Below are positions 20,377-48,399 of a stretch of 58,857 bases of DNA, piece after piece. Source of the stretch: a virus. The number at the start of each line of letters is the position of its first letter. Position 1 is the stretch's first letter. The notes under the pieces are model-generated. The model was not told the DNA's origin. It made no database searches and saw only the letters and a list, made by a program, of their open reading frames with translations. The stretch is taken from positions 1 through 58,857 of the IMG/VR virus record IMGVR_UViG_3300045988_042242; one strand, given 5' to 3'. The translations under genes were made by a program, and so were the position numbers.

Positions 20377-20619
20377 TCAGAATAAACTTAATTGTACACC
20401 GTTCTTCTTTTGTTTCTCTACTGTTCGTGCGTAGATAGTGCATTGTGATGTATAGTGACATTGACCGGCTGCTGCTTCTAAATGTGCGCCGTGCCAATCT
20501 TCCCATTCTTTCACGCCGTCTTCTGTCAAAAAACGTATCAACTGCATACAGTTGAAGCCACGTTCTTTGCGCTTCGCATCGTGTAGTTCTACAAGTCCAT
20601 TACTTTGTGGCTTCATCAT
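20377..20619 (-). CDS. Hypothetical protein (80 aa)
   Basis: Start refined to the ATG that overlaps the upstream stop (ATGA at 20616..20619). Confidence 0.45.
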   Translation of the reverse strand: MMKPQSNGLVELHDAKRKERGFNCMQLIRFLTEDGVKEWEDWHGAHLEAAAGQCHYTSQCTIYARTVEKQKKNGVQLSLF

Positions 20620-21742: not shown

Positions 21743-21841
21743 TTTTGCTGTCTGCCGCTTCGCCTGCCGCGTTTCAGCGTTTCAGATGATAGTTTGCTTG
21801 GCTGCAACTGTCAAAGTGCGGCAAACAGCGACATTTTCGTT

Positions 21842-22654
21842 TTATCTGCGGCTTTCGCCTTTCAATACTATGATGTTGTATGTCTTGAAGCGGTCTATCA
21901 GGCGACCGAAGTCATCGCTGAATGTTTCTTTCAATCGCTTCATGTCGAGGTTCGTTGTCAGATGCGCAAACTTGCGTCCGTCAATGGCTGTCTGTGTCCA
22001 GATTTCATTTCTTGCGTGCAAGAAGTCTTCGACTATTGTGCGCGTGTCAATACCGTAGAACGGTCTGTTTTCAACACCGATGTCATTCAGACAGATGTTT
22101 ACAGGCTGCGGTCTGAAACCTACGCTGCTTTCTTCGTTGTACGTGTATCTGTCAATGTTGTTGTGCATCGTGAAGTAATTCGTCATCTGCGTCACTGATA
22201 CGTTCTCGAAGAAGTTCGGGTTTTTCGTTTCTCGTAGATACTCGCTGAATATCTGCATGAGCATCGTCTTGCCTGTGCCAACATCGCCCATGATAAGCAA
22301 GTTGTTGTGCAGTTTGTAGTGCTTGTTCGGGAATACTTCTTCAGCAAGCGGGCAGTTGTTGAAGTAGTACAACAGAAATTGAAGTACCTTTCTGTTGTTG
22401 TCATCAATTTCAAATTTTCTGTGCTGCGGTGCAAGACAGATGTTATTCGCGATGTATATCAACAGATTGCAATGTTGCAAATAGATGTCGTGGTTTGTCA
22501 AGTCAGGGAACTGCTTCTGAGCCCTGCGTGACTTTGCAAGCACCGTGTTCGCGATTTGCTGTATTGTCTGCCAACTTTCTTGTGCATCGCGCTTGCGCTT
22601 CGCTTCGACTTCAGCAATCTGTTCTTCTGTTAGTACTTTCTTTTCTTCAGTCAT
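21842..22654 (-). CDS. DnaC/IstB-like AAA+ ATPase (helicase loader)
   Basis: Walker A GDVGTGKTMLM and a Walker B-like ICLNDIGVE. It lies immediately downstream of the initiator gene and is preceded by the conserved leader. Confidence 0.65.
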   Translation of the reverse strand: MTEEKKVLTEEQIAEVEAKRKRDAQESWQTIQQIANTVLAKSRRAQKQFPDLTNHDIYLQHCNLLIYIANNICLAPQHRKFEIDDNNRKVLQFLLYYFNNCPLAEEVFPNKHYKLHNNLLIMGDVGTGKTMLMQIFSEYLRETKNPNFFENVSVTQMTNYFTMHNNIDRYTYNEESSVGFRPQPVNICLNDIGVENRPFYGIDTRTIVEDFLHARNEIWTQTAIDGRKFAHLTTNLDMKRLKETFSDDFGRLIDRFKTYNIIVLKGESRR

Positions 22655-22666
22655 ATTGCGTTGAAT

Positions 22667-23572
22667 TTATTTGTTCTTGGAAATGAAGTCTGCATCATCG
22701 TTGTCATCGTAGTTTACAACTGACTTCTGTTGCTGTTCTTCTGTCTGCTTCGGCTTCGCTACAACTATGTCAGGCAGTTCTTCTTCCCAACGTGCCTGAT
22801 ACAGCCATGTAGATAGATTTGCGTAGTTCGGCTTCCACTGACCGGCTGCTTCTGCTGCTTTGTTGTATTCAATCAGACGTTGAAGTGCCGGCATCAGCAA
22901 AGGCACAATCTTCGTCCAATTCTTATGCTTACGCTTGAAAGCGTCAAATTCTGTATCGTGACCGCGCTTGCGACCTGGGTACGCTTTTCTGAAGACTTCA
23001 AACGCTTCTTCAAGTTTTGAAAAATGCTCGTTTTCACAGTTTTCTTTTTCTTCTATATCTATATCTTTATCTTTATTATTTATATTATTAAATATAAACT
23101 GTGAATTTTCGTCAGAACAACCAAAACAACCATTTGCTTGATTTGCTTGTTTTTTCGTTCTTTTTGTCTGCGCATCATCTTGTGTTTCAGCAATTTCAGC
23201 AAAACAACCATTTGCTTGTTTTAGTTGTTTTTCAGACGTGCTTTCGCTGTCAAAATCAACCAAATCAACCATTTGGTCGTTTTGCTTGTTTTTGCTTGTT
23301 TTTGCTTGTTTTCTTGCGTTCTGATTGCCTTTCGGCGCACCGCCCTTGAGAGCCGCCGCTATACGCTTTTGACGTATCGCTTCTGTCTTCGCTTTTTCTT
23401 CGTCAATCTGTGACTGCATCAGCGAAGTCACGGCTGCAATGGTAGCGTTAGTTGGTCGTACACCCTCAAATGCGTAAGCGCAAACCGAATTAAATGCTTC
23501 AGCCTGCATTTCGACCGGCAGACACTTGATTGCGTACCACCAATCTTTGTGAAAAATGAGGGTATCTTTCAT
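22667..23572 (-). CDS. Replication initiator (lambda O-like role) containing the origin iterons
   Basis: 301 aa. It sits upstream of the DnaC-like loader. DNA iterons and an AT-rich block lie in the middle of the gene (23041..23312). Confidence 0.5.
   Translation of the reverse strand: MKDTLIFHKDWWYAIKCLPVEMQAEAFNSVCAYAFEGVRPTNATIAAVTSLMQSQIDEEKAKTEAIRQKRIAAALKGGAPKGNQNARKQAKTSKNKQNDQMVDLVDFDSESTSEKQLKQANGCFAEIAETQDDAQTKRTKKQANQANGCFGCSDENSQFIFNNINNKDKDIDIEEKENCENEHFSKLEEAFEVFRKAYPGRKRGHDTEFDAFKRKHKNWTKIVPLLMPALQRLIEYNKAAEAAGQWKPNYANLSTWLYQARWEEELPDIVVAKPKQTEEQQQKSVVNYDDNDDADFISKNK
23041..23312. repeat. Putative origin of replication: AT-rich block plus iterons
   Basis: AT-rich block at 23041..23100. 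19-bp repeats caaaacaaccatttgcttg at 23122..23140 and 23200..23218, and a degenerate copy caaatcaaccatttggtcg at 23261..23279. Three tandem tttgcttgtt units at 23281..23310. Confidence 0.55.
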
Positions 23573-23579
23573 AGTTCAA

Positions 23580-24224
23580 TCAGAATACAAAATCACACCA
23601 AAGGTCAACAAACTGATTTCCGGCGTACAACGCTAATTCGCGTGTCTTGAAGGCGAGCCGAGAGCCGTACCTCGTACCCGAGTACGAGGATGCGTTGCTC
23701 GCGTTCGCACAGACGAGGCCGCCATACGCGTTGGCGTTGCTACCCGAGCGACCAACGACACGGCAGCATCTTTCTTTGTCATCTGCGTCAAGGTCGTTGT
23801 ATTCGTCTTCTGTGTATAGGCAGAACCACGGATAATACTTACATTCGTCACTGTTCGTCCAATCGGGTGCCCAGCCTTGATTGAGTGCTGCTGTGATGAT
23901 GCGCAACTTCAAGAAAGCCGTCAGGTCGCGCATATCTTTTTCGTTGCCGTTCATCTGCTGTTCATACAGATGATATTGACGTACAAGCGTGTGGTCTTCG
24001 CCGAGAACTGCAATAGCATCTTCAAGCGTCTTCACACGTTCTGTGATTGGGCGGTTGTCAACGGCAGCTTCGATGTGTTCTGCTTCGATGACATACTTCT
24101 TTCCTGTTGAGTCGAATTTGACTTCGTACAGATGCGGTTCACGTTTGATGTCTATGACTTCAGTAATGATGCCCTCTTGGTCGAAGACATTTACTTTTTG
24201 ATTTAATTCAAATTGATTTTTCAT
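23580..24224 (-). CDS. Second (remote) DGR target protein, 214 aa, with a variable region near its C-terminus
   Basis: The C-terminal segment CRVVGRSGSNANAYGGLVCANASNASSYSGTRYGSRLAF is encoded by a copy of the template repeat that differs mainly at TR adenines. No signal peptide or TM segment is seen. Confidence 0.8.
   Translation of the reverse strand: MKNQFELNQKVNVFDQEGIITEVIDIKREPHLYEVKFDSTGKKYVIEAEHIEAAVDNRPITERVKTLEDAIAVLGEDHTLVRQYHLYEQQMNGNEKDMRDLTAFLKLRIITAALNQGWAPDWTNSDECKYYPWFCLYTEDEYNDLDADDKERCCRVVGRSGSNANAYGGLVCANASNASSYSGTRYGSRLAFKTRELALYAGNQFVDLWCDFVF
23653..23765 (-). repeat. DGR variable repeat 2 (VR2)
   Basis: 113-bp alignment to the TR shows 13 differences. Eleven are at TR adenines (coding strand), all in AAY codons or TAT. 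The shared 3' flank CTTCA extends it to 23648. Confidence 0.85.
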
Positions 24225-24383
24225 TGTTGATTTTCTTTAATTTTGGTAATACTTCATGTTTTATTATTCTCTTTGCGTTTGTCGCACGCAAACTCTTTCT
24301 GATAGCATCTTCATCAATGTAGTCGAGAAGAAGCGGCAGGCAGCGCACCAAAGTCGCTACAACATTGTTAGGCACTTGCTTCA

Positions 24384-25121
24384 TCAGTACGGTTCTTTAG
24401 AAACATCGACACAGACACCGCGCTTTGCAATGATGACAGGCTTGCCTGTCTTCTGCATGATACGCTGCTTGAACTGTTCTGCATCGCTGTTGTTGTGTGA
24501 CAGATGTATCAGAATTATGTCGTTCACGGTGTCAAGATTTGAAGACAGCAAGATGTTTTCAGTTGTCTTGATTTCCATGTGCGACTGAAGCAAGCGCGGA
24601 CGCATTGATGCCGGTGTGATGCCGTTTTCAATGTTGTAGTCAAGAATTTCGTCTGAATAGTTCGCTTCTATCATCATGTGTGACAGGTTTGGTATGCGAT
24701 ATTCAAACATCATCGTGTCTGTGACAAACAGCATCTTTCCCATTTCTGCGTGTTCGATGACGAAACCGACACACGGCACATCGTGTTCCACATGCACCAC
24801 AAAGACATTGAACGTGCCTATTCGATAGCCGTGCATCGGTTCGATTTCCTTGCAGAAGATGCGCTGCTTCAATGCGTGTGCGTCAAACACTTCTTTCAAC
24901 GCACACACACGAATTGCACTTTTCAGATATTCAGCGATGAATTTTGAATGGTCACCGTGCTGATGTGTCACGATTGCGCCGGCAATGCGACCAATCTTGA
25001 AGTCAAGTGCTTTCTTCACTTCAAGAAGTGGCATACCGCACTCGATGACAAGTGCGCCGTCAGATGCTTCAAGAATGTAGCAGTTGCCGCTTGATGATGA
25101 GCCGAGAACTTTCAATTTCAT
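24384..25121 (-). CDS. Metallo-beta-lactamase-fold hydrolase (possible nuclease partner of RecT)
   Basis: HxHxDH motif THQHGDHS. 245 aa, directly downstream of recT. Confidence 0.7.
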   Translation of the reverse strand: MKLKVLGSSSSGNCYILEASDGALVIECGMPLLEVKKALDFKIGRIAGAIVTHQHGDHSKFIAEYLKSAIRVCALKEVFDAHALKQRIFCKEIEPMHGYRIGTFNVFVVHVEHDVPCVGFVIEHAEMGKMLFVTDTMMFEYRIPNLSHMMIEANYSDEILDYNIENGITPASMRPRLLQSHMEIKTTENILLSSNLDTVNDIILIHLSHNNSDAEQFKQRIMQKTGKPVIIAKRGVCVDVSKEPY

Positions 25122-25142
25122 CGTGAACTTCTGTTTTATGGG

Positions 25143-26120
25143 TTAGTAACCTGGTGCTTCTTCTGCTTCGTTCTGCTGTGACGCTTCTGATGCTGTTTTG
25201 GGCTGCTGTGTGACTTCGCCGGTGCTTTCATCGACTACTTCTTCATACTCGACTGTTGAAGCGTCAAGGTTAAGCGGTTTCTCGTCTGCGATTTGCAGTG
25301 CTTCTTCACGCGCCACAAGTGCGTGCTGTGAAGCGTTGTCATCTGCTGTGATAGCGTTCTGCATCTTGATAGACAGATAGCCATACTTCGACAGAACACG
25401 GCGAATGACAGTCTTCAGTGCCATGTCGTTGAAATTTCCCTCCCAACCGACAGACTTTGACACAACACCGTTGTTCGCTTTCTCGATGAGCTGCGCGATA
25501 GTGGTGTCTTGCTTGATACCGGGAGCGTATCGCTTCGCATACTTCGCCATGTCTTCGACTGACATGAAAAGTGTCTTGCTGTAACCGTTCAGCAACTCGA
25601 AGTAACAGAAGTAACCGACAATCTTGTCAGAAGCCTTCTTGCCGTCAAGTGCGACTTCACCTGACAGACGGTTCACTGTGCGAAGTTCGCCCTCATAAAC
25701 AAAGTCCGCGTTAATGGTGCGATACTGACCTGTTCGCATAGCGAGTTGAATGTAACCCTTGTAACCGGGAATGAATGTCGGTGTCGGCACTTTTATCCAT
25801 TCATCGCGGCCGGTCTGTTCGTTGCGCACTTTCTTCTTGTTGTTGTACACAACGATGTAGGCGAAACCGAGTGCGCGATTGATAGGCAGGTCAAGCACTG
25901 CTGCTTTCAGTGCTTCAGACACGATTTGCGCCGGTTGGCAAGTCTGAAGCGACTTGTCACCGTTGTAAAGGTCGATGATGCTTGCGACAAACAGGTCTTT
26001 GTTTTCTGCAAGCGCGTTTTGGAACTGTTCCTGAACACTGGGCGCGTTCAGAATGGTCTTCAGTTTTGCAAGACCGCCGGTTGTCTGCGGCTGTGCTGCG
26101 ATTTGATTTTTTTCAGCCAT
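25143..26120 (-). CDS. recT: RecT-family single-strand annealing protein
   Basis: 325 aa. IPGYKGYIQLAMRTGQYRTINADFVYEGE and the overall RecT pattern. Confidence 0.8.
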   Translation of the reverse strand: MAEKNQIAAQPQTTGGLAKLKTILNAPSVQEQFQNALAENKDLFVASIIDLYNGDKSLQTCQPAQIVSEALKAAVLDLPINRALGFAYIVVYNNKKKVRNEQTGRDEWIKVPTPTFIPGYKGYIQLAMRTGQYRTINADFVYEGELRTVNRLSGEVALDGKKASDKIVGYFCYFELLNGYSKTLFMSVEDMAKYAKRYAPGIKQDTTIAQLIEKANNGVVSKSVGWEGNFNDMALKTVIRRVLSKYGYLSIKMQNAITADDNASQHALVAREEALQIADEKPLNLDASTVEYEEVVDESTGEVTQQPKTASEASQQNEAEEAPGY

Positions 26121-26147
26121 TTTACTGCGTTGTTAATTGGTGAATTA

Positions 26148-28169
26148 TTATTGATTGTTTGCTTCAACACGAAGTTGTGCATCGCGTGAAACGATAAGAT
26201 TTATTGTTTGTGACTGCATCGGCATGATGTCGTTGATACTTTCTGCGTTATCCACGAATATAGGTGCGTAGATCTCTTCAGACTTGCAGATTGCGTTGAT
26301 GATGTCAAGACCGATGTTGATACGTTCTGCGTTGCTGCAAGTGCTGTATGGCTTACCGTTCAGCGTTGCTTCGCACGTTTCACTTTCTGCGCCGTTGATT
26401 GCTACTGCTATCCAACGAAAGCGCACGATGCTGAAAAGACCGTTGATGCGTGCTTCGATTGCTGCGCTGCGTGCTTTACTGAACTCTGCTATGACAAATT
26501 CTTTGCGTTCAAGTTCTGCAAGTTCGATATTCAGTTCCTGCATCTTCTTTTCAAGTTCGCTCACGCGGCGTTTGTCTGCTTCTGCGTCTGTGCGCTTTGC
26601 AAGTTTAGCGACAAGCGTTTCAATCGCTTGTGTCAGTGTCGTGCGACCGTTACGCAATTCTTCACGATTTTCGTTCTTATTGCCGTCAGACTGCTGCTTT
26701 GTGTCTTTTTCTTTCGTCAGTCGGTCAATGTCTTCTTGAAGTGACTTGTTGCGGCTGTCTGCTGCTATTGCTGCATCAGCATCAGGTCTGACAAGTTCGG
26801 CAGTGTATTCAGAAGATGCTTCGATTGATGTGATGCGCTTCTTGTATTCTGCAATAGACGCTTCAGCAAGTAAGATGTTCTTCTGATATTCTTCTTTGCG
26901 CGTGTTGTTTGCGATGCCATTACGCTTGTTGCGTGCGATGTCATCAGCGACTTCACCAAGACGCTTTTCACGTTCTTTCTCGAAGTTATGAAGCATCTGT
27001 GCTTCTTTTGCTTCTATGTCAGCCATGTCAAGCGGTCTGTGACAAGTAGGGCAAACAAACTGTGCTTCGTCAATCTGAAGTGTTTCTGCCTTGATAGACT
27101 TCTGCTTTGCGTTGAGCTTCTGCCATTCTGCAAGGAGCGTGTTACGGCGTTCTTCGCACTGTGCGATTTCTTTCTTGTAGGTGTCGATGTCGAGTTCACA
27201 CGATGCGATATTCTGCTTCAACAGTTCAACTTCGTGCTTCAGTTCGTTCTTCTTTACCTGTGCTGCGTAGAAGTCGCGCATAACTTCCTCTGTGATTTCA
27301 TTTTGACGCTTCATGCGTTCTGTGCGAAGACTTTCAATTTCGCGCATCAGTTTACGCACGGCTTCATTTGATGCGCTTTCTGCTGCATTGATGTCTTCAA
27401 GTTGCTTTTCGATGTCTGCGCGTGCTTCGCGCTTCTGCTTCAGTTCTGCTTCAAGCGAAGACCAATCTTCTTCTTCAGACTTCGCGATGTCACGCTTCTT
27501 TTCGTCAATGCGACCAGGCAGGTCAACGAGTTCTGCATTGATGCGCTGCTTCTTCGCGCTGATTTCTTTCTTGAAGTCTGCAAGCGTCTTGCCTGTCAGT
27601 TCTGCAAGTAACTTCTGAAAGTCTTCGTTGTCTGCTGCGACTTCTTCGTCTGTAATGTTTCCGGCCATACGGTGCAACATCGCTTTCTGCACTTCTGCTT
27701 TCTGACTTGTGAAGTATGTCGGCGATGTGATGAACTTAAAGACTGCTTCATCGCAAATGTCGGTGATGTGTTCTTCATAGTCTTTCTTGCTGCACGGCAC
27801 GTCATTGAAGAAGCGTTCTTCTTTGTTGCCGTCAAACTCTTTGTCAACCTTACCTGCACGCTTCACCCATTTTTCAGTGAAGCGGCGTGACAGAGTGATT
27901 TCCTTACCGTTCACTTCGATGACTGCACTGACTTCATGCGGAAGTTGTGCGATGATGTTTCCGTCTTCGTCAAGTGTCTTCAGGTCAAATGCCTTGCGGT
28001 CTTGGCTGTCTTTGCCAAACAGTAGCCAAGTGAAAGCATCGAAGACTGTTGTCTTTCCGGCACCGTTGCGACCGTAGATGTTTGTGACTGTCTGATTGAA
28101 GTCAATTGTCAGGTCGCGCACACCCTTGAAATTTACAAGGTGCATCTGTTTGATGATGATACTTTTCAT
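26148..28169 (-). CDS. SbcC/Rad50-like SMC-type ATPase with zinc hook
   Basis: N-terminal Walker A GRNGAGKTT, a coiled coil of about 400 aa with a central CPTCHRPL hook, and a C-terminal IFVDNAESI Walker B/D-loop. Confidence 0.7.
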   Translation of the reverse strand: MKSIIIKQMHLVNFKGVRDLTIDFNQTVTNIYGRNGAGKTTVFDAFTWLLFGKDSQDRKAFDLKTLDEDGNIIAQLPHEVSAVIEVNGKEITLSRRFTEKWVKRAGKVDKEFDGNKEERFFNDVPCSKKDYEEHITDICDEAVFKFITSPTYFTSQKAEVQKAMLHRMAGNITDEEVAADNEDFQKLLAELTGKTLADFKKEISAKKQRINAELVDLPGRIDEKKRDIAKSEEEDWSSLEAELKQKREARADIEKQLEDINAAESASNEAVRKLMREIESLRTERMKRQNEITEEVMRDFYAAQVKKNELKHEVELLKQNIASCELDIDTYKKEIAQCEERRNTLLAEWQKLNAKQKSIKAETLQIDEAQFVCPTCHRPLDMADIEAKEAQMLHNFEKEREKRLGEVADDIARNKRNGIANNTRKEEYQKNILLAEASIAEYKKRITSIEASSEYTAELVRPDADAAIAADSRNKSLQEDIDRLTKEKDTKQQSDGNKNENREELRNGRTTLTQAIETLVAKLAKRTDAEADKRRVSELEKKMQELNIELAELERKEFVIAEFSKARSAAIEARINGLFSIVRFRWIAVAINGAESETCEATLNGKPYSTCSNAERINIGLDIINAICKSEEIYAPIFVDNAESINDIMPMQSQTINLIVSRDAQLRVEANNQ

Positions 28170-31073: not shown

Positions 31074-31113
31074 ACAAAGACAGCGTGACGTTCATAGCCA
31101 CGCTGTCTTTGTT
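31073..31113. terminator. Bidirectional terminator between the lysogeny operon and the integrase gene
   Basis: Perfect 15-bp inverted repeat aacaaagacagcgtg / cacgctgtctttgtt. Confidence 0.7.
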
Positions 31114-32257
31114 ATTCATCATCCTCAAACAAGTTCGGTATTCGTTCAACCGCTGCTTTCTTGTTCTTGTCTAATATCTTCGCATACACTTGTGTCGTTT
31201 CAATGCTCTTGTGTCCTAACAACTTCGATACTGTGTAAAGGTCAACGCCCAAGTCGAGCATCATAACTGCGAATGTATGTCGCGCACAGTGAAACGTGAT
31301 GTGCTTGTTGATACCGGCACTTTTCACCCATGCCGCGATGCTGATGCGTACCGCCTGTATTGGACCAAGTTTCGGGAAGACGCGGTCTTCAGGGTTGCCA
31401 CGTTCACCAAGCATCGAAGCTGCTTGCGTGTTCAGGTCAAGATATTCAAGTCCGCCGGTCTTCTTCTGCGTGAACACGATGCGCGTGCCTGTGTGCCATT
31501 CTTGCACTTCACTCCACTTCAGTTTCACAATGTCGCTCCAGCGCAACCCGGTCAGGCAAGAAAAGAAAAACGCTTGTGCAAGGTCTTCATTCGGTGGCGG
31601 TGTCTTGCGTAGTTTCTTGATTTCTTCAATCGTCAGAAATTCGCGGTCAGACTCAGGTTCTTTGAAGCGTTCAACACCGGCGGTCGGGTTGAAACGTATG
31701 ATACCCTCGCGCATCGCGATATTGAAGACGCTGCAAAACTTCTGAAACATAAGTGCCTTTGTTCCCTGCGATATTGGCTTTGGCTCAACATCGCGCTTTC
31801 GTGTGTCAATCGCCCACTGCATCGCTTCTGTGTCAAGATAGTCACGGAAGCCACGCACCCACTGCGGCGTGATTTCACCGAACGTGATGCGTTCGTTCGG
31901 TTCATACTTCAGAATGTGTGCAAGGCAGTTCTGCCAACTTGTCTTTGTCGTGCCGTCCTTGCGGTCTATAATCTTGCGCATGACCTCAATAAACATCGCG
32001 TCTTCGTGCGTCTGTACGTCAATGCCAAAGTCTTTTGACTGAATTTCGACCACGCGCTTTGCACGCATCGCTTCAGCAAGTTTCAGCGTTTCTTTGTTCT
32101 TCTGCTTGTCTTCGCGTGTCTTTTCCGGCACAAGATACATTTTCAGATATTCATTCGTGCGCTTGCCGTCACGACAAATATCAAGATACAGCGCAATCGT
32201 ACCGTTTCTGCGCGGTCGCTTGCGTAGATAGACGATTTCTTTTTTTTTCTGTGTCAT
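31112..32257 (-). CDS. int: Tyrosine recombinase / phage integrase (Bacteroidota type)
   Basis: Start refined to MTQKKKEIVYLRKR... at 32257, with the leader catattgcggtga. The catalytic region includes HCARHTFAVMM and LLGHKSIETTQVYAKI. An N-terminal SAM-like arm-binding domain is present. Confidence 0.9.
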   Translation of the reverse strand: MTQKKKEIVYLRKRPRRNGTIALYLDICRDGKRTNEYLKMYLVPEKTREDKQKNKETLKLAEAMRAKRVVEIQSKDFGIDVQTHEDAMFIEVMRKIIDRKDGTTKTSWQNCLAHILKYEPNERITFGEITPQWVRGFRDYLDTEAMQWAIDTRKRDVEPKPISQGTKALMFQKFCSVFNIAMREGIIRFNPTAGVERFKEPESDREFLTIEEIKKLRKTPPPNEDLAQAFFFSCLTGLRWSDIVKLKWSEVQEWHTGTRIVFTQKKTGGLEYLDLNTQAASMLGERGNPEDRVFPKLGPIQAVRISIAAWVKSAGINKHITFHCARHTFAVMMLDLGVDLYTVSKLLGHKSIETTQVYAKILDKNKKAAVERIPNLFEDDE

Positions 32258-32664
32258 ATTGCGGTGAATTTTGTTGCGCATGATGCGCGATTTTGACCGC
32301 GCAACAAAAACGCACCGCAAAGATAGCATATATTTAGCACATTTGCGCACACTTTTGGAAAATAAAGAAACCGCAACATAAATGTTTCAGTCTGTGATAC
32401 TGTGCATTTATGTTGCGGTCGTATGTCGTGTGAGTGCGTTACCTGAAAACTTCGTCTTTCGCCTTAAAATTCACTGGTAAAATGCTATATTCTTCATTTA
32501 TTTTGTTGATATTCTGCAATTTGTGCCGCTGTTCAAGTTGCTTGCGCAACAAAAACGCACCATTTTATGCAAAAATACCGTCCGAAGTGCCGTAAAGGCC
32601 ACCCCGGACGGCTTCAACGCAATGATGACTGAAATAATCATCATCTGTGCAAAGGTAGTCATTT
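32258..32664. other. Non-coding attP-candidate region
   Basis: 407-bp gap next to int. It has an 18-bp direct repeat gcgcaacaaaaacgcacc (32299..32316 and 32544..32561), a 14-bp inverted repeat ccgcaacataaatg / catttatgttgcgg (about 32372..32419), and a minus-strand -7 box TATCTTTG (plus-strand caaagata at 32319..32326). Confidence 0.45.
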
Positions 32665-39021: not shown

Positions 39022-40383
39022 TTAATCATCGAAGTAGTAGCGTGTGCCACCACCGCCTTGAAACGGTTCACTTCGTATTGTTACAGCGATTGAAGTCGTG
39101 TCGAGTGTTCCGCGCATAGCATCAAGCATCGTCTTCATTTCATCGCTGTTTGTGAAGAACTTCGACATTTGACCTGTATTCAACTTTCTGAACGAAACAA
39201 GATAACGACCGTCACCTTGCTTTGTCTTCACATCACGTTCAAAGTCTATCAGTTCAATCGGTACGTTTACGATTGAACTGATGCGCACACACTCGCCGTT
39301 GAAGCGTTTCTTTCCGTCTTTAGGCGTATATGTCAGATTTAAATCACTGAATTTAATCATTTCTTGTTTTGTTAAAATTTTCTTTAATAGATGTTTGCAG
39401 TCTGCGTGTTTCGCCATGCCGTACAGTGAGCCGACAATTTCAACCCTGCGCTTTCTGCTTTTCACTTTCGCGAGTTTACGACAGAAGTTCTTCTTGACAC
39501 GCTTGCGCAAAAGCGTATGTGTCGTGAATATCTGATAACCGAGAAAGTCAAGACCTGTTTCGATAGGGAAAACACGCTCATTCTTCTTGATTGTCTGACC
39601 GATGCTTTCGATATGTTCATGCACTTCGTCACGCACAAGCCACAGAAAGCGTTTGTCTGATGCGCCCACGACAATATCGTCCATGTAGCGATAGAAGTGC
39701 CGCACACCGTATCTGTCTTTCATAAAGTGGTCAAGATGAACCGACAGAAGAAGATTGACAAGACCTTGTGAAGACCGCATACCCATACTCATGCGCTCGC
39801 CGTCCGGCATCGTTGCAAGAAAGTCGGCAAGTATCGCGATAAGTCGCTTGTCTTTGAATACACGGTTGAGCGCGTACAACACAAATTCATGCTTCACTGT
39901 GTCGTAGCACTTCTTTATGTCACATTTATACCAATACAGTATTGATGTGTCTTGCATCATGTCACGTCTGATGTACTGCATCAGGTCGTGCATTCCGCGC
40001 TTTTTGATTGATGCTGAAGTAGTGCGTATATAACGAGGGCGAAGATGCTTGTCAACAGGTCGCATTACAGCATTGATTTTGATGCGTGCTGCCATGCAAT
40101 ACACCTGAAGAAGACGTTTCTTCCCTGCTTCACAGATTTCTTTTTCGTGATAGCCACCGGTGCGCAATTCTTCTTCGGTCGGTGCGCGATGTACAGGCAT
40201 CAGTGAAATTTTCCCTGACACGATTTCTTCGCGCACTGACTTCAGAAATTCTTCGCGATGTTCAAGAAGCCATTTACCTTCAGGCAAACTTTTTCGGAGC
40301 GTTCCTCTGACTACATCGTCAAACGACTCTTCAAGATTTGTCTGTTCAATGATTTCTTCTATTATGTAACCGTCACGTTTCAT
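39022..40383 (-). CDS. DGR-type reverse transcriptase
   Basis: 453 aa. RT motifs YKCDIKKCYDTV (3), MGMRSSQGLVNLLL (4, with the DGR-typical SQ), YRYMDDIVV (5, YxDD) and LDFLGYQIF (7). It is adjacent to the TR/VR pair. Confidence 0.9.
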   Translation of the reverse strand: MKRDGYIIEEIIEQTNLEESFDDVVRGTLRKSLPEGKWLLEHREEFLKSVREEIVSGKISLMPVHRAPTEEELRTGGYHEKEICEAGKKRLLQVYCMAARIKINAVMRPVDKHLRPRYIRTTSASIKKRGMHDLMQYIRRDMMQDTSILYWYKCDIKKCYDTVKHEFVLYALNRVFKDKRLIAILADFLATMPDGERMSMGMRSSQGLVNLLLSVHLDHFMKDRYGVRHFYRYMDDIVVGASDKRFLWLVRDEVHEHIESIGQTIKKNERVFPIETGLDFLGYQIFTTHTLLRKRVKKNFCRKLAKVKSRKRRVEIVGSLYGMAKHADCKHLLKKILTKQEMIKFSDLNLTYTPKDGKKRFNGECVRISSIVNVPIELIDFERDVKTKQGDGRYLVSFRKLNTGQMSKFFTNSDEMKTMLDAMRGTLDTTSIAVTIRSEPFQGGGGTRYYFDD

Positions 40384-40851: not shown

Positions 40852-43800
40852 TTATTCGCTGACTTCGATTTCACCTCTGAAGGCGAGCCGAGAGCCGTCA
40901 TTCGTACCCGAGCTCGAGGATGCGTCGCCCGCGCTCGCATCGACGAGACCGCCACCCGCGTAGGCGTTGCTAACCGAGCGACCAACGACACGGCACCTGC
41001 TGCCACTGTACCACTGACCGTCACAGTAATTTGATGCAAATACGCTGCTGTCTGATGTACACTTCGATGCGATTACGTCACAGAAGCGACCGTGACGCAC
41101 ACGACCGATGCACACACCACTGTTTGTTACGCCCTGCACGACACGTTCTGTCTTGCTGATAGGGTCATAGATGTGCCACTTCGCATCAATCGGGTCAGTA
41201 TTGATTTCTACACCGTGATTTTCGAGATACGACTTGAACGACAATACATTCACTGCGACATTATCCATGACTTCCCAAGTACAGCCGACAAAGTTTTCAA
41301 TGCCGAGTATCTTGTTTCCGTTCGATGCTGTTGTGCGCTTCGTGTCTGCATTGCCGACTGCATCTTGACTGCCTGTTGTGCCGCCTGAACTACGTCCGTA
41401 ACCGCATATCAACTGAACATCACGATTGCCGTTCAAACTCATCCACAGAATTGCCATGAGTTTGCTCATTTCGTAGTCGATAAGTTGATAACCGTCACCA
41501 CGGCGCATTGCGAGGTTCTGCAAGTCCTTGTATGTGTAGTTCAGCGCACCAACAGGCGTGTTCTTCACACGTCCGTTTTCATCATACTGCCATTCAGTAG
41601 AAGTCTTTGATGTTCCTGTACCAACACGGACAGTTGCAGCACTTATACTTCGTAATTGCATCAGTGTGTCAACAGATGCGTGATATACACCGACAAGCCA
41701 CGGTTTGTTTTCTACCCAATCAGGCTCAATCGCTTCGATTTCTGCACTATCAACTGCGATGACTTCCTGTGAGTTGTTCGTTCCCTTTGACGAAAAGAAG
41801 AACGATACAGCACCGTCAGGCACATTGCAGAATACATAATCTTCACCTTCAAGGAAGTCAAACATCGTATTCGACACTGCAAGATTGAATGTACCTACAA
41901 TTTTGCCGGAAGCATCAGTGAAGACTGCGCCGATGACACTGTGATTAAGCCCCGGCCAGCGCACTTGCTTCATGCCTGACACGTTCAGATGATAGATGTT
42001 GTAGTTCGGTGTGTCTGCGATTATGCCGTCAGTTTCAAGCGTAGATGTGCCGATGACAACATCAGTAGTCTGCACGGTTTTGTTGGCTTCGTACAGCACT
42101 TCAGACAGTTTCTTGCGTGTGATATTGCGTGCCGTGCTGATAGGTTCAGTAGTGAGCGAAGACCAAAAAATGTATTTCTTCTGCGCCTTGAAGTCATTCA
42201 CGCCCTTATACCAAAGATGCGGACAGCGCATCATTACATCGAAGCCTGTACCAAGTTCGTCCTTGTAGTCAAAGACAGTTCCGTCAGGCATCTGTTGATA
42301 ATTCGCATCGCTGATGCGTTCACCTACCCATTTGCCGTTGCTGTTCGTTCTACCCTTGACAGGTATCAGACCTTTGCGTATGCGTAGAATGTGACCGCTT
42401 GCTTCGTATGCGTCACCGTTCGTATTGTTGTCAAGATTGGTGATGTTCTTCGGGTCATTCACCGTATCATCGAAGACAACGCCTGTAAACTGCGCATTGT
42501 GAACTGTCAGACCGATGTCAGACGGCTTGAAGTACGCTTGCAGTTGTGCAAGTTCGCTGTCATCAATCAGCTTCGTCAATATCCATGAGCCTGTGATACC
42601 GTCACAACCGTGGTCTGCGTCACTGCCGATACCCTTTGTGCCGTCAGCCATAAGACGCTTCAGAATTGTCGCGTCTGCATTGACTTCAAGACCTGAAATG
42701 CCGATGTCTGTCAGATGCGCATTGCCGTTTATGACAGCCTGAAGCATTGCGAAAGCATCAATGCCGGCGCACGCTTCAATCTGGAGACGCTTCACATTGC
42801 TGAAACCGGCTATTGTAAGACCGCCGTTTGGATATGTCAGTTTAGGCAGATTTTGAAATGTCAGAGAAGTCATCGTGTTAGGCAGTTGTAGTGTTTCAAT
42901 CGGTGATGTCTGTGCCGGTGTGAATGACTGTAACTGACTGCCGAGCGCACGCACCGTCTTCAGACGCGGGCAATAAGTCGCGTCCAAAGTCTTCAACGGG
43001 AAGTTCCTGATGTCAACTTCTTCAAGGAACGGCAACTGACCGAGTGCAAGCGTAGCAAGTTCATCGCCCGAAGACGTTGCAGGGGTGTATGCTTCGCCGC
43101 CGATGATAAGTTTCTTCAGAAGTGTCAGATTGCTGATGTCCCAACCTTGCTGTTTTGGCGTTGCGTTTCTGATGTCAAGTTCTTCGATGCGGTCTGCGCC
43201 GAAGATGTAAATCATAACACCACCGCCGAGGTTCGTGTTGTTCGTGTAGAACGTATGACTTTCTCCGGCATTCAGGAAGCAAGAACCGCCGTTTGCTTCG
43301 TTGGCACGGTCAACGCCGACACCGAAGTAACCTGCTTTTGCTGCTTTGATTGTGATGCTCATGTTCGTGCCGGTGCATCGCATCGAGATTGCGCTCGAAT
43401 ATGTGTCACCGCACTTATAGAAGCCGTCACGGAACAAGAAGCGTTTCTTGACATATTCGCGAAGTCGCTGAATTGACAGACCGTGAAGCGCGAAGAAGTA
43501 GTTTGCCGATGCCTTGCTGTTTTCGATATACTTGCGATTGCCGTCATACGATGACACAAGTTTCGGCCACTTCTGCAAGCGGTCTGTTACCCAATACTTT
43601 TCAATGCCCTGCGGCGAGAATGGGCGCAAACCTGATGCAAGCTGCTGTGAGCGCATCAATGCTGCGATACGTGCGACAGTAGTTGTGCGTGTCGCGTCTT
43701 CTGTGTCGATTTCTGCGCGATAAGGCTGAAGCCAGATGTGTTCTGCCTTTGCGAGCTGCACGAAAAGCACGCTGTCATGCCCCTGATAGTAACCGTTAGG

Positions 43801-46800
43801 GTCATTGTTCGGGTCAAGTTCTGCCGGGATAGTAAGACCACAGTCATTGTCACTGCCGAGAATGGTATCGCCGTCATACAGATGATTAAGATACATTCTG
43901 ACATTGCCGTCAGTTTCGATATAGAAACCGACCATCATGTTCTTGCTTCGTTGGTCAACTGCTGCGATGTAGTCAGTGAAGACATGATACATGATTGCGC
44001 TGTATGGGTTCGCTTCCTTGTGAAGTTCGTGCGCAAACTTCTTCAGACGATTTTCGGGTGTTCCTGGTACACTCTTGCCGTCAATCGTAATGTTTCCGTC
44101 CGCTGCTGTCTTGTGCTGATTACACTCGTTGCACCAACACAGCCACTTATATAGACGATACGGCAACTTTCGACCGTCTTCATAGGCGGTGTTCAAGTCA
44201 TCGTTGTCGGGATAGCGACTTTCAAACTGCTGAAGCCATACAAGTTCACCGTCTTCAGAACGGCGCAACATATCATCAATGCTTGACACGTTCTGAAACC
44301 AATCCATGTCATTGTATGCTTTCAGTTCGTAGCACTCGACAGGGTTCACAACATCGCCGGTGATGCGCCAGCGACCGCCTGTGTATGTCATCGTGCCTGT
44401 TGTTTCTGTCCATGCGCCACTTTGATAGCGGTACACTTTGTGATTTGGGCCGCAAAATTCAGACAGAACAACGATGTCTTCAGTGTTCCATTCTGACTTG
44501 TCAACAGATGCCGCAAAATCATCGAGCGTCTGATTTCTTGCTGCGATGTATTCTGTAAAATCACCGTAGTTCAGACAGTCTTTGTTGTAACCGTCAACGG
44601 CTTCAAAGCCAAATACTGCTGCATCGCCTTTGTCGTGATTGAAGTTTCCCTTTGCATGGAAATATCCGTAAGAAGGTGAAGTCGGGTCTGGCGAATTTGC
44701 GTCAGTGCGATATAGTGCCATAGGAATGGAACTGATGCAAGGGTTCAGTTCATATTCGCCGGTGTAGAAGTTCTGCGCCGGTGTCATGTATGCCGAACCA
44801 AGTGCGCGTGACAGTTCGTTGTACAACTGCGTAGATGCACCGTTATTCGCGCCGCCACTTTCTGAATAGTCAACTTTGATACAGAAGATGTTTGTCGGCA
44901 TAGTGCCGCGCACGATTTGGAACTTGTTATTTGCCGCGAGTGATGCGATGAAGTCGTATTCTGCGAGTTGCTGCGCGTCAGTGAACTGACTGCGGTCGTA
45001 CATCATACGAATGAGCTTTGCTTTCTTCGACTTGCCTTTCTTGTTCTTGATAGGTCTGCGCGAAGATGTCGTACCCTGATTTGTAGTCGGAATGTCTTCG
45101 ATGACAAAGTTTCTCCAAGGACTATCAGGGAAGTAGAAGTACCAACACAGAACAACAGGTGTCTTCTTGTCACCGTCAAGACCTTCAATGTATTCAGGAT
45201 AATTTTCAGGCGTGTCTTCAGTGTTCGGTGACTTGCACATAACGGCATACGCGATGTTTCTTTCACCGAGTGATGCCATTTGCGGAATGTTTCGTGCCGG
45301 TCTGCCCTCTGCCGTCTGTGATGCCATTACCTGATTGAAGTTGTATTCAACAATCATCGCATCGGTGTCAGCGAGTTTCAGCAAGTAGTTGTTGAACGAT
45401 TGTTCAAAGTTGTAGTACGTTTCCCATGCACGCATATTGTACAGATACAGGTCTGCTTCAGAACCGTCAAACGTGATAGGCGTTGCGTGACGTGACAGTG
45501 AACCTGCGTCATAGAAACAAGCACCTGAAAATTCGCCGTCAAGATACAATGCGACAGTTCCGATGCCGGCATACGGTGCCTGGCTTGTAGGCATGATGAC
45601 GATTGCAACGTCTGTGATTGCGTCTTCTTCAAGTGCCGCGTCAATCGTGTGTGCGACTGTTTCTTCATTGTCAGTCGTGAAGACAACACGTTTGCCGGTA
45701 ACAAAGAAGCCGAAACCATTGCTGATGCAACTGATAAGACGTGCGTTTTCGTCCGCGATGTGGCGCGTGCGCACGCGGAACTGAATAGCAAGACCGTTCG
45801 TTTCGATTGAAGACACGTTGAAAGGAGCATAATCAAGCGTTGCTTTCACGTTCTCTGCGATACGCAAAGCCATGATGCCTGTATCGTTAGGCTGTTCGTA
45901 CACGTCACTGCCGTAACTGTCTTTGACAAAGCCGTTGGTCGTGTAGTTCGAGCCGATGACGGTCATCGTATAGCCGTTGCTTGTGATAGACTTGTCTGTG
46001 TCCTTGTTGCTTCGGCTGCTGAAGTCAATATCAATCATCTGCTGCGCTGTCACGCTTTCGATGTTCAGAAGTGTGCCGACAATCTTGAAGTTCGCTGTTT
46101 CAGATACAGATGTGCCGACACGCGCGAACAAGCCTATTGTCACACTGCCGTCAATCGCGTGACCTTGCACGCGCTGAATGTACGCTGAAGTCACACCACG
46201 TCTGACAAGCGATGTACGCTTGATAGTTGTCTGTGTGCCTACCTTTTCAAAGATTTCGACAGACACTTCAGAAGACTGCGAAGAATACGCTGCGAAGTCG
46301 ATGCTGATTGTTTCGTACTGCTTGACTTCACCGTCTTGCTTTTCGCTGTACCAACGTGTCACGACAATAGGTGTTGTGTTCGCCGGGTCAACGACCATGA
46401 CTGCCGTATGAAGATAGTTTCCGACAACGCCTGAAGACACGTCTTCGCCATGTATGCGAAGCGGATATGCGCCATGCTGAAGCGCAACACCGCAACAGTT
46501 CTTCGGGTCTATTGTGATACTGTGCGCGTAGGTGTCGCTCACGGTTGCTGTGCCGAGCGTTTTCCACTGACCGTTGATTAAGATTTCAGTGATGCAAGTG
46601 ATGCCTTTGTCAGATGCGTTGTTCGCGAAACGATACATCGGAAGCTGCTTCACTGCACCGCCGACATTGATGACAGTTGATGCCGTGTAATTCAGCGTCT
46701 GTTCTGATGTGATAGTCACATCTACTGCTGTCACGTTGATGTTACGCTTCGCTGTGCGGTCGCTGTCATCATACGCAACGAAACGGAACTTGCGCTGACC

Positions 46801-48399
46801 GGCTATGCTGAAGTATCGCGACAGGTCAAATTCAAAGTCGAATGTTTCCTTGTCTGCCGATGTCGCTTTGTTCAGTCTGAATGTTTCGAGCAACTGTTCC
46901 GTGTCGCGGTCATACAGTTCTACTTTTTCGATAATGCCGCTTTCATAGTCTGCACCGTTCTTCAGCGTGATTGCAGCGTTCACGATTAGCGTACCGCCTG
47001 ACTGACCGTAAAGCGGTGATGTTTCGGGCGTAAATTCAAGTATCATTCCTGTCTGGCCGCCACCGCCTGTGCCGACTGCAAACTGCTTTTCGTCACCTAC
47101 TGCTGCACCGGCTGCGTTTACAAGTTGCATCTTCACGACACCTTCTGTTTCAGTGTCGATATTGATGTTTGCAGGAATGTGCGTGAAAGCACCGCCTGTG
47201 CTGAAAGCGTCTTTGCCGTCTTCTTCGGGGTCATCTTTTGTTTCAACAGTAGAACCGCCGCCACCGTTGCCGAAGTCTTTCCACAGACCGGCTTCACCGA
47301 AATTGCCGACAGAAGACGTGAACTGCTTGGCTTCCCAAGTGTTTTCGCCTGTCTGATAACTGATGACAAGACCGCTCTTGCGATAGTCTATGCCTGTTGC
47401 ATTTGACTTTGCGACAAGTGCGTTGATTGCATATTCGAGCGTGTAGTATGCTGCTGCCGTACACGGACCACAAAGCGCATCTATGATGATGAATGTTTCG
47501 TCACCTGCTGACATTCCTGCATTGTCGAGCCAGTTGCCTGGGTTCTTGAAGTTAGCTTCACTGCTATCTGCGCCAATGTATTGATACGTCTTCCAAGACT
47601 TGTCTGCGATAGCGAATGTTATCTGCATACCGACATTGCGGAAGCCTTTGTCATAAGCAACCGCAATCGCTGCTTCAAGGTCGTAGTAACCCATTGACAG
47701 CGGCACATCGTTCGTCACGTTGAAACAGTTTCCGACTGCTGCTGAACCTCCGAACTTGCGCCAATACGATGTTTTGATGAATGGGTCATACTGCGGTGGC
47801 ACCATTCCGTTACTCATATAGAACGTGTATTGCCACGACTCCCAACCTTGTTCGCCTGGGAATGTCACGACAAGTCCTGCTTTCTTGAACAAAGCACTGT
47901 CTTTGTGCGATGAAAGCGCACCTATGACTGTTGCAAGTGTTGTGCTTTGCGTCAAAGACAGCATTTCTTTCGCGTTGATAAACAGACGCGGCGCGATGAT
48001 GTTGTCAAGTTCAGTTCTGTTTGTTTCAACTGCTGCCTTCGCTTCACCGGCTGTATTTTCTGCTTCTGATGCCGTTTCTCTTGCAGTATCGGCATTTCTG
48101 TTTGCCTGTTCTGCAACGCTGTTCGCTGTTTCTGCTTTACTGATTGCAGAATTTGCAGTCGTTGTTGCTTCGGTAGCCGCTTGCTGCGCCGATGATGCAA
48201 GTGTCTTCGCTTCACCGGCTGTTTTGTTGGCTGCTTGCGAGGTCTTCAGCGCGTCTTGTGTCGGCTGTATAAGACCGTTTAGCAAGTCACCGATTGGAAT
48301 TTTTACGCCCTCATTCTGCGCATTGACACCGAGCGTGTAAAGTCCGGCGGTCGATGTCGAGGTAGGTAATTCCGTTATTCTTTTTCTGAGGTCTGCCAT
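40852..48399 (-). CDS. Giant tail fibre / receptor-binding protein (2,515 aa) with the DGR variable region at its C-terminus
   Basis: Ala/Thr-rich N-terminal coiled coil, a LamG-like segment, a leucine-rich-repeat block (about 42700..43200), and a C-terminal ...CRVVGRSVSNAYAGGGLVDASAGDASSSSGTNDGSRLAF encoded by VR1. Confidence 0.85.
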   Translation of the reverse strand: MADLRKRITELPTSTSTAGLYTLGVNAQNEGVKIPIGDLLNGLIQPTQDALKTSQAANKTAGEAKTLASSAQQAATEATTTANSAISKAETANSVAEQANRNADTARETASEAENTAGEAKAAVETNRTELDNIIAPRLFINAKEMLSLTQSTTLATVIGALSSHKDSALFKKAGLVVTFPGEQGWESWQYTFYMSNGMVPPQYDPFIKTSYWRKFGGSAAVGNCFNVTNDVPLSMGYYDLEAAIAVAYDKGFRNVGMQITFAIADKSWKTYQYIGADSSEANFKNPGNWLDNAGMSAGDETFIIIDALCGPCTAAAYYTLEYAINALVAKSNATGIDYRKSGLVISYQTGENTWEAKQFTSSVGNFGEAGLWKDFGNGGGGSTVETKDDPEEDGKDAFSTGGAFTHIPANINIDTETEGVVKMQLVNAAGAAVGDEKQFAVGTGGGGQTGMILEFTPETSPLYGQSGGTLIVNAAITLKNGADYESGIIEKVELYDRDTEQLLETFRLNKATSADKETFDFEFDLSRYFSIAGQRKFRFVAYDDSDRTAKRNINVTAVDVTITSEQTLNYTASTVINVGGAVKQLPMYRFANNASDKGITCITEILINGQWKTLGTATVSDTYAHSITIDPKNCCGVALQHGAYPLRIHGEDVSSGVVGNYLHTAVMVVDPANTTPIVVTRWYSEKQDGEVKQYETISIDFAAYSSQSSEVSVEIFEKVGTQTTIKRTSLVRRGVTSAYIQRVQGHAIDGSVTIGLFARVGTSVSETANFKIVGTLLNIESVTAQQMIDIDFSSRSNKDTDKSITSNGYTMTVIGSNYTTNGFVKDSYGSDVYEQPNDTGIMALRIAENVKATLDYAPFNVSSIETNGLAIQFRVRTRHIADENARLISCISNGFGFFVTGKRVVFTTDNEETVAHTIDAALEEDAITDVAIVIMPTSQAPYAGIGTVALYLDGEFSGACFYDAGSLSRHATPITFDGSEADLYLYNMRAWETYYNFEQSFNNYLLKLADTDAMIVEYNFNQVMASQTAEGRPARNIPQMASLGERNIAYAVMCKSPNTEDTPENYPEYIEGLDGDKKTPVVLCWYFYFPDSPWRNFVIEDIPTTNQGTTSSRRPIKNKKGKSKKAKLIRMMYDRSQFTDAQQLAEYDFIASLAANNKFQIVRGTMPTNIFCIKVDYSESGGANNGASTQLYNELSRALGSAYMTPAQNFYTGEYELNPCISSIPMALYRTDANSPDPTSPSYGYFHAKGNFNHDKGDAAVFGFEAVDGYNKDCLNYGDFTEYIAARNQTLDDFAASVDKSEWNTEDIVVLSEFCGPNHKVYRYQSGAWTETTGTMTYTGGRWRITGDVVNPVECYELKAYNDMDWFQNVSSIDDMLRRSEDGELVWLQQFESRYPDNDDLNTAYEDGRKLPYRLYKWLCWCNECNQHKTAADGNITIDGKSVPGTPENRLKKFAHELHKEANPYSAIMYHVFTDYIAAVDQRSKNMMVGFYIETDGNVRMYLNHLYDGDTILGSDNDCGLTIPAELDPNNDPNGYYQGHDSVLFVQLAKAEHIWLQPYRAEIDTEDATRTTTVARIAALMRSQQLASGLRPFSPQGIEKYWVTDRLQKWPKLVSSYDGNRKYIENSKASANYFFALHGLSIQRLREYVKKRFLFRDGFYKCGDTYSSAISMRCTGTNMSITIKAAKAGYFGVGVDRANEANGGSCFLNAGESHTFYTNNTNLGGGVMIYIFGADRIEELDIRNATPKQQGWDISNLTLLKKLIIGGEAYTPATSSGDELATLALGQLPFLEEVDIRNFPLKTLDATYCPRLKTVRALGSQLQSFTPAQTSPIETLQLPNTMTSLTFQNLPKLTYPNGGLTIAGFSNVKRLQIEACAGIDAFAMLQAVINGNAHLTDIGISGLEVNADATILKRLMADGTKGIGSDADHGCDGITGSWILTKLIDDSELAQLQAYFKPSDIGLTVHNAQFTGVVFDDTVNDPKNITNLDNNTNGDAYEASGHILRIRKGLIPVKGRTNSNGKWVGERISDANYQQMPDGTVFDYKDELGTGFDVMMRCPHLWYKGVNDFKAQKKYIFWSSLTTEPISTARNITRKKLSEVLYEANKTVQTTDVVIGTSTLETDGIIADTPNYNIYHLNVSGMKQVRWPGLNHSVIGAVFTDASGKIVGTFNLAVSNTMFDFLEGEDYVFCNVPDGAVSFFFSSKGTNNSQEVIAVDSAEIEAIEPDWVENKPWLVGVYHASVDTLMQLRSISAATVRVGTGTSKTSTEWQYDENGRVKNTPVGALNYTYKDLQNLAMRRGDGYQLIDYEMSKLMAILWMSLNGNRDVQLICGYGRSSGGTTGSQDAVGNADTKRTTASNGNKILGIENFVGCTWEVMDNVAVNVLSFKSYLENHGVEINTDPIDAKWHIYDPISKTERVVQGVTNSGVCIGRVRHGRFCDVIASKCTSDSSVFASNYCDGQWYSGSRCRVVGRSVSNAYAGGGLVDASAGDASSSSGTNDGSRLAFRGEIEVSE
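40883..40996 (-). repeat. DGR variable repeat 1 (VR1)
   Basis: 114-bp alignment to the TR shows 15 differences. Fourteen are at TR adenines, all in AAY codons. The shared 3' GC-rich element GGCTCTCGGCTCGC is followed by CTTCA, which both VRs carry where the TR has AAACA. Confidence 0.9.

Follow-up and report, generated by a model that had tools for sequence, protein, structure and literature searches.

Why should a variable repeat (VR) of a phage diversity-generating retroelement (DGR) lie in a gene for a small protein of 214 amino acids (aa), among genes of replication and recombination and far from the reverse transcriptase (RT) that would rewrite it? The question is raised by the open reading frame (ORF) at 23580..24224 on the minus strand of the virus record IMGVR_UViG_3300045988_042242, which was analysed over its whole length of 58,857 nucleotides (nt) and is called the window here; positions and strands are those of the window unless another record is named. 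Phage DGRs are commonly seen as switches of tropism that work through the tail fibres, and a second target that carries no signal sequence and sits among early genes suggests that hypermutation is also put to use after DNA entry. A remote, non-structural phage DGR target will as such be no surprise to the specialist. The question of what second targets bind was raised by Benler et al. in 2021 (PMC8008677), and the window adds a second, unrelated phage backbone that carries the same target family. On balance, and with some reserve, we think it likely that the following holds as a whole: the gene is an active second target of the DGR, its product is not a tail protein, and it would act as an early intracellular binder that can be diversified.

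The mechanism of a DGR is that the transcript of a template repeat (TR) is reverse-transcribed with infidelity at adenines, and that the resulting cDNA replaces any VR bearing an initiation of mutagenic homing (IMH) sequence. A repeat search of the window found a 118-nt repeat in three copies, at 23648-23765, 40596-40713 and 40878-40995, all on the minus strand, as is the coding sequence of the genes around each of them. The middle copy lies between the gene for a 2515-aa tail-type protein and the RT gene and is taken as the TR because it is rich in adenine and adjoins the RT gene; its 113-nt core has 27 A and encodes CRVVGRSNNNANANGGLVYANANNASSNSNTNNGSRLA. VR1 (40878-40995) lies at the C-terminus of the 2515-aa protein, the primary, adjacent target (40852..48399, minus strand; matching phrog_14959 and phrog_5302, ‘tail protein’), and 14 of its 15 mismatches to the TR fall at TR adenines (binomial p = 2e-8). 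VR2 (23648..23765, minus strand; repeat family D1) covers residues about 154-192 of the 214-aa protein. In its 113-nt core 13 positions depart from the TR, which has an adenine at 11 of these and T at two, an adenine bias with a binomial p of 7e-6 given 27 A in 113 nt.

These counts reproduce, by alignment, those of a sequence-only reading of the same DNA, which had placed VR2 inside the 214-aa ORF and about 17 kb from the RT and TR, as it is found to be. The codons cited in that reading as having been changed differently at the two loci (GGT, TAT, TAC and TAC in VR2; GTT, GGT, AGC and GAC in VR1) are likewise correct. The common 3’ element that it described is seen in the alignment of the three copies: VR1 and VR2 both finish with GGCTCTCGGCTCGC-CTTCA, against GGCTCTCGGCTCGC-AAACA in the TR, and the CTT/AAA distinction between VR and TR is also kept in related contigs. 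This element (23648..23666 in VR2, minus strand) appears to be IMH-like, as opposed to a putative IMH* in the TR. The two VR2 mismatches that are not at adenines are T>C and T>G; relatives carry none or one of this kind, and they may be point mutations acquired since the last homing event or errors of the RT.

Is VR2 then still being rewritten? The answer comes from a comparison of assemblies, rather than from the mapping of reads within a sample. Two IMG/VR contigs (L006 and L007) encode the 214-aa protein at 93% and 88% identity, and a DNA alignment shows the three genes to be near-identical outside the VR and full of differences within it. The L007/L013 contig yielded a TR identical to that of the window, and the TR of contig L010 is identical to them as well; that of L006’s contig was not recovered. 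When the three VR2 copies are compared, 26 of 113 sites vary, of which 23 are TR adenines. Outside the VR, dN/dS among the three genes is 0.25-0.36 with dN at 0.014-0.036, and inside it dN reaches 0.22-0.29 with dS at 0-0.03, ratios that indicate purifying selection on the scaffold. A larger sample of 60 close cluster representatives gave a mean column entropy of 0.15 bits outside the VR, and entropies of 1.3-3.1 bits at the 14 positions of the VR for which the TR codon contains an adenine (AAY in 11 cases, TAT and ACG in one each). VR1 varies equally among relatives, with 13-15 substitutions per copy. A fossil copy, in which VR2 would be invariant beside a variable VR1, is ruled out by the comparison of near-identical genes, the entropy of the 60 variants and the dN/dS values: VR2 varies at TR adenines as VR1 does, and it is no relic because this variation among relatives is accompanied by purifying selection on the scaffold. 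The adenine-specific patterns and the variation at both loci bear out the earlier proposal that VR1 and VR2 were rewritten independently from one TR. VR2 is a genuine, active second target of the phage’s single DGR.

What kind of protein is diversified in this way? The 214-aa protein has 1749 homologues in a protein database and matches phrog_11581 (E 3e-52), a family annotated as ‘unknown function’. Its isoelectric point is 4.9, and no hydrophobic segment was found in it by Kyte-Doolittle hydropathy (maximum 19-residue mean 0.85), which bears out the sequence-only reading that the protein has neither a signal peptide nor a transmembrane helix. Similarity to the VR1 tail target is confined to 40 VR-encoded residues (BLASTP aligns residues 154-193). 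The protein is probably non-structural because its gene is placed in the early block, because it has no transmembrane helix or signal, and because its tail homology is limited to the VR.

Two parts can be distinguished in the protein. Residues 8-52 (24069..24203, minus strand) are predicted by AlphaFold2 (AF2) to form a small N-terminal beta-barrel, SH3/Tudor/KOW-like, with a block-mean predicted local distance difference test score (pLDDT) of 80-92, and Foldseek returned weak SH3/Tudor/KOW/PWWP-like matches for it. Residues about 59-214 (23583..24050, minus strand) make up the conserved C-terminal module seen in two family alignments (A4 and A5), in which a helical part is followed by a YYPWF strand, the VR, an SRLAF strand and a two-helix tail; the sequence after SRLAF, earlier given as 23 residues, has 22. 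The VR terminates in G[SF]RL[AC], which we take to be an ending typical of VRs of the C-type lectin (CLec) kind. No immunoglobulin (Ig) domain was found by Pfam or in the AF2 models of the protein, and the matches obtained with Foldseek in BFVD were to uncharacterised gut-phage proteins only.

The family to which the protein belongs is large. A profile search of 1.84 billion representatives found 3500 clusters at E<=1e-3, and at the stricter E<=1e-30 it found 357, which are clusters at 50% identity; single 90% clusters hold up to about 37,000 sequences, and intact variants number in the thousands. Common to the hits is a C-terminal module of ~160 aa with the VR (profile positions 34-193 are matched in most of them), which is joined to many unrelated N-terminal extensions; none of the N-terminal domains of members matches a structural PHROG. 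Homologues at 29-56% identity were found by tblastn in Bacteroides phage Versailles, in several LoVEphage records and in BI-TP1, PV4-TP1 and BT-TP2, and all members tested, including those of Versailles and LoVEphage and more distant ones, belong to phrog_11581. Judged by these sequences, phrog_11581 is a large family of small, signal-less, acidic proteins in temperate Bacteroidales phages.

The association with DGRs extends through the family. Cognate, adenine-biased TRs accompany members in nine lineages, and the sequences of these TRs are unrelated. Versailles has three repeat copies, one being the VR of a small early-block gene, one the VR of a tail protein and one a TR adjoining the RT gene; 15 of the 19 mismatches in its VR2 are at A, its TR is unrelated in sequence to that of the window, and 31 near-identical Versailles-type proteins differ at 12-13 positions only, all of them TR adenine codons. 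The LoVEphage homologue matches the TR and VR1 of its own genome, and in IMG/VR contig 188293, in which the TR has diverged, VR2 follows that contig’s own TR.

There are also cassettes in which a phrog_11581 member is the only nearby target. In one (L021; Logan SRR32592299, 10001-12235) a 300-aa protein contains two tandem family modules, each with a 65-nt VR, and the TR (10931-10995 of that record; TR peptide SGSSFSYNDYNYDNSNSKVGS) lies between the family gene and an RT gene immediately downstream. All 14 mismatches of one VR and 14 of 16 of the other are at TR adenines, and the cassette, with the family member as its adjacent target, sits in the early region of a temperate phage. A second locus (L020; Logan SRR18476388, 10001-11265) has a TR and three VRs, of which a tandem-module protein carries two and the 124-aa gene after it the third; an RT was not detected within 10 kb of it, and close by is an IS1595 transposase. 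VR segments are tandemly duplicated within the family members P0144, P0159, P0243 and P0255 (alignment A5), in which VR length varies; such duplications may be a by-product of aberrant retrohoming.

One member of the family bears a label that points elsewhere. The Versailles homologue (L004:2082-2663, WAK79127.1) is annotated ‘tail protein’, and its phrog_5302 match comprises only ~45 VR-encoded residues, limited to profile positions 500-545 of 548. The annotation was rejected as a VR-only match. This likely mis-annotation will recur wherever a non-structural DGR target has its VR in common with a fibre.

Within the genome, the ORF has a 17-nt overlap with a 58-aa ORF upstream of it, and 7 nt separate its end from the DUF6291 gene. 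Upstream (24384..28169, minus strand) are genes for a metallo-beta-lactamase (MBL)-fold hydrolase (24384..25121), RecT (25143..26120) and an SbcC-like ATPase (26148..28169), and downstream (21842..23572, minus strand) are those for a replisome-organiser-like DUF6291 protein (22667..23572) and a DnaC-like loader (21842..22654), so that Pfam and PHROG annotation confirm the neighbours named from the sequence, an initiator on one side and MBL/RecT/SbcC-like genes on the other. A scan of 20500-29500 for promoters and terminators gave nothing usefully above shuffled sequence, the promoter consensus being of the sigma-70 type, which does not extend to organisms with promoters of other types, Bacteroides presumably among them. 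The DUF6291 gene contains, at 23118-23312 and some 340 nt from VR2, a ~47-nt unit (beginning CAACCAAAACAACCATTTGCTTG) in four iteron-like copies, a candidate replication origin within the putative initiator gene.

The sequence-only reading had called this context unusual and the use of the DGR little-described, and neither description is upheld. In 29-30 of 80 species-level Bacteroidales genome loci SbcC-RecT-MBL lies directly upstream of the family gene, which makes this the normal placement of the family, with a conserved order of integrase, regulators, SbcC, RecT, MBL, target, DUF6291 and DnaC; the same family and arrangement were reported in 2021 (PMC8008677) and noted again in 2025 (PMC12629997). 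An integrase lies no more than 10 kb away in 25 of the 80 loci and an RT in only four, two of which, L034 and L068, show a perfect adenine bias (all 14 and all 17 mismatches at A, respectively). The slot between the MBL hydrolase and the replication initiator varies among phages that share the module. Of Porphyromonas phage005b (L023) and BS-TP4 (L024), one has a methyltransferase and hypothetical genes there and the other DUF4494 and VRR-NUC. Because phages with the same module carry other genes in the slot, the 214-aa protein is seen as accessory and not as a core component of replication or recombination.

These observations can be brought together in the following proposal. Error-prone cDNA from the TR transcript would replace VR2, 17 kb off, as it does VR1; distance from the cassette is no bar to this because remote DGR targets have been documented (PMC8144416). 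The target gene would be transcribed early together with the recombination and replication block, as is suggested by the tight packing of the genes without detectable promoter or terminator signals. The protein would act in the cytoplasm of the infected cell, which is probable because an export signal is absent, and it would be a diversifiable binder with a variable surface that is re-tuned to a variable intracellular partner in the host. This partner would most plausibly be a component of phage-host conflict, for example a defence protein or its trigger, and diversification after entry would complement the diversification of the tail fibre at adsorption.

A stronger version of this proposal, which we put forward tentatively as possible rather than probable, is that phrog_11581 proteins are dedicated intracellular DGR-diversified binders (‘intrabodies’), re-tuned so as to neutralise or sense variable cytoplasmic factors of the host. 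Two observations fit selection on the family target itself, namely the RT-adjacent early cassette of L021 and the modular N-terminal domains; these interchangeable domains could act as different effector or anchor parts. If the intrabody proposal is true, DGRs widen the host range of Bacteroidales temperate phages post-entry as well as at adsorption, and if the partner is a host defence or replication factor the family would represent a natural case of protein evolution that is programmable and takes place inside the cell. The function of the family is directly testable because there are cultured carriers (Versailles, LoVEphage isolates and BT-TP2).

The neighbours of family genes in other lineages suggest a role in conflict as an association only. 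The L020 member adjoins a weak Acb2/Tad1-hairpin protein as well as an LPD38 polyvalent protein of 2926 aa, and PAPS reductase and methylase genes are found in the neighbourhood of L021. Orthologues of the window’s MBL hydrolase in Porphyromonas phages, at 41.7% identity, are annotated as ‘anti-Pycsar nuclease (Apyc1-like)’, and prophage orthologues have weak or faint hits to Pfam PF23023. An Apyc1-type anti-Pycsar enzyme is a weak lead that comes from these annotation labels and Pfam hints; the enzyme may instead be a recombination nuclease, and a phmmer search of PDB with it returned RNase J only (E 0.0075).

Several results weigh against an intracellular binder engaged in host conflict, or leave parts of the scheme without support. 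The association with counter-defence is weak, its Pfam hints being described as ‘weak’ or ‘faint’, and the MBL enzyme is coupled to RecT in >100 phage records. Searches of Pfam (with the protein and all 65 members of its alignment), of NCBIfam and of PDB profiles gave nothing meaningful for the 214-aa protein. The full-length AF2 model, built on that 65-sequence alignment, has a pLDDT of 75.8 with the VR (residues 155-186) below pLDDT 50; a second model, made for residues 56-214 from an alignment of greater diversity, has a predicted template modelling score (pTM) of 0.73 with the VR again below pLDDT 50, and a Foldseek search of PDB with the C-terminal module returned 0 matches. A C-type-lectin or FGE-like fold with the variable residues on display, for which the sequence-only reading proposed to look, is neither confirmed nor contradicted by these models and searches. 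On the side of the retroelement, no ORF of >=60 aa that could encode an Avd-like accessory protein was found on the coding strand between VR1 and the RT gene, and a 167-aa ORF downstream of the RT gene, with a weak match to DUF4376 as its sole hit, is not a candidate for Avd. A hairpin or cruciform 3’ of the VRs was not detected, DNA folding being no better than that of shuffled sequence (z +0.43 for the VR2 flank and -0.48 for VR1). With both Avd and a VR2 hairpin not found, the cis requirements for remote homing are unexplained; to our knowledge not every DGR carries a recognisable Avd.

Three other explanations have to be set against an early intracellular binder. The first, which we consider unlikely, is that the protein is a virion or receptor-binding accessory, such as a fibre-tip adaptor or decoration protein, that is encoded outside the tail module and whose VR2 diversifies adsorption as VR1 does. 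It would account for the VR that the small protein has in common with the tail protein and for the similar extent to which VR1 and VR2 are diversified, and it could appeal to the ‘tail protein’ annotation of the Versailles homologue, although that label is the VR-limited phrog_5302 match discussed above. In at least 30 species-level loci, however, the gene directly follows the lysogeny switch and is part of the early block, the L021 member is in an early block with its own RT, the interchangeable N-terminal domains have no structural PHROG match, and Benler et al. judged a homologue to be non-structural (PMC8008677).

A second explanation keeps the protein inside the cell and gives it a different partner. 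It would be a replication or recombination adaptor with a variable surface that recruits a host protein which varies from one host species to another, such as DnaB helicase, primase or SSB, to the replisome organiser or RecT, and so widens host range post-entry. The window, Versailles and many prophages place the gene between SbcC-RecT-MBL and the replisome organiser or DnaC-like loader, a helicase or primase gene was not noted among the neighbouring genes scanned, and related phages have been reported in several Bacteroidaceae species (PMC12694917), all of which would be in agreement with such an adaptor. Yet the module is present without the gene in Porphyromonas phage005b and BS-TP4, so that the gene is dispensable to that module, and the LoVEphage and L021 copies are not next to replication genes. 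LoVEphage moreover has its own annotated DNA primase, and most Quimby-like phages have their own primase and helicase (PMC8008677). An adaptor of this kind is improbable in our view.

Finally, it is very improbable that VR2 is a by-product, a copy of the tail VR, off-target or relic, which its homing signal alone causes to be rewritten and which varies without a selected function: the two non-adenine mismatches and the undetected hairpin downstream of VR2 are compatible with this, but purifying selection on the scaffold, an architecture kept in nine lineages with unrelated TRs, cassettes with the family as the only nearby target and thousands of intact variants leave it strongly disfavoured.

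Other parts of the retroelement and of the genome of this gut Bacteroides phage were annotated as well. The RT (39022..40383, minus strand; 453 aa) matches Pfam RVT_1 (E 5e-15) and phrog_1423 (E 2e-82), and its translation contains MGMRSSQ and YMDD, presumably the motifs of DGR RTs. Its last ~110 residues match a separate PHROG, phrog_19665, and this C-terminal extension might substitute for an accessory factor. In the C-terminal 300 aa of the tail protein (40855-41754, minus strand) residues 15-65 weakly match fucose-binding lectin repeats (E 0.0016), which hints at an extra carbohydrate-binding module upstream of VR1. The phage is temperate because it has a tyrosine integrase (31112..32329, minus strand; Pfam Phage_integrase E 2e-22), and Prevotella and Bacteroides genomes contain homologous prophages as integrated elements. 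The first and last 55 nt of the window (1-55 and 58803-58857) are an exact direct repeat, and the window probably represents a whole phage genome of ~58.8 kb that was assembled as a circle. A megablast search of GenBank phages with 20-30 kb of the window found no close relative.

How does this locus compare with DGR systems described previously? In Bordetella phage BPP-1, with its Mtd tail-fibre target, an RT and an A-rich TR direct adenine mutagenesis, IMH and IMH* are distinguished and the VR lies near the C-terminus of the target, as in the window. The BPP-1 system has a single, adjacent, structural target, Avd and a downstream hairpin, whereas the window has a second target that is remote and non-structural, and neither Avd nor a VR2 hairpin was detected. 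The comparison draws on established knowledge together with PMC12629997 and PMC8008677.

Two-target DGRs of gut phages have been described with other protein families. The Bacuni phages of Bacteroides uniformis have two DGR targets, one adjoining the RT and one distant (PMC8143477). These targets are described as fimbrial-tip-like DUF1566/Fib_succ_major proteins, whereas the window target belongs to a different family, and neither the window protein nor a central member of its family gave a tblastn match in Bacuni genomes. Tentaclins, the second targets of two-target gut-phage DGRs, have been proposed to be receptor-binding proteins (PMC10743442); in these an N-terminal C-lectin is followed by Ig domains, whereas the window protein has its VR near the C-terminus, has no Ig domains and is encoded in the early region.

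The closest parallels are in ‘Quimbyviridae’. Benler et al. (2021, Microbiome 9:78, PMC8008677) described a DGR with two VRs in which the second target is non-structural (Quimbyvirus ORF 80/84), reported a CLec domain in the Quimby homologue and inferred for the second target a role in phage-host conflict. As there, one RT and one TR in the window serve a tail-module VR and a VR in a small gene far from the structural module, and near-identical genomes show adenine-specific variation. The LoVEphage homologue has 37% identity to the window protein and falls in the same PHROG, and its locus, with four methyltransferases as well as a tRNA ligase, matches the neighbourhood described for Quimby-like phages (PMC8008677). 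We infer from this that LoVEphage is a Quimby-like phage; a literature link between the names was not found. The differences are nevertheless considerable. Quimby-like phages have genomes of ~71-75 kb, whereas that of the window is 58.8 kb and belongs to a temperate phage with SbcC/RecT/MBL and a DUF6291 initiator. The TR sequences are unrelated, the N-terminal domain is a predicted beta-barrel here and helical there, the neighbours here are recombination and replication genes and there methyltransferases, and the RT gene here is a single intact ORF that is not frameshifted.

More recently Dahlman et al. (2025, Nature 647:698, PMC12629997) reported distal second VRs in four Bacteroidota prophage species and found that they lie near counter-defence genes. 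The window resembles these cases in that its second VR is found by way of the TR, is distal from the RT cassette and belongs to a temperate phage of gut Bacteroidota, a group which in their study included LoVEphage. Their account consists of a two-sentence observation and a figure; a protein family, a structure and a survey are not given there (PMC12629997). Set beside these reports, the window target adds a different backbone, TR, N-terminal domain and set of neighbours to the known second-target arrangement. The picture of the family that emerges, with its modular build, its RT-adjacent cassette and its usual place after SbcC-RecT-MBL, adds somewhat to what the published notes contain.

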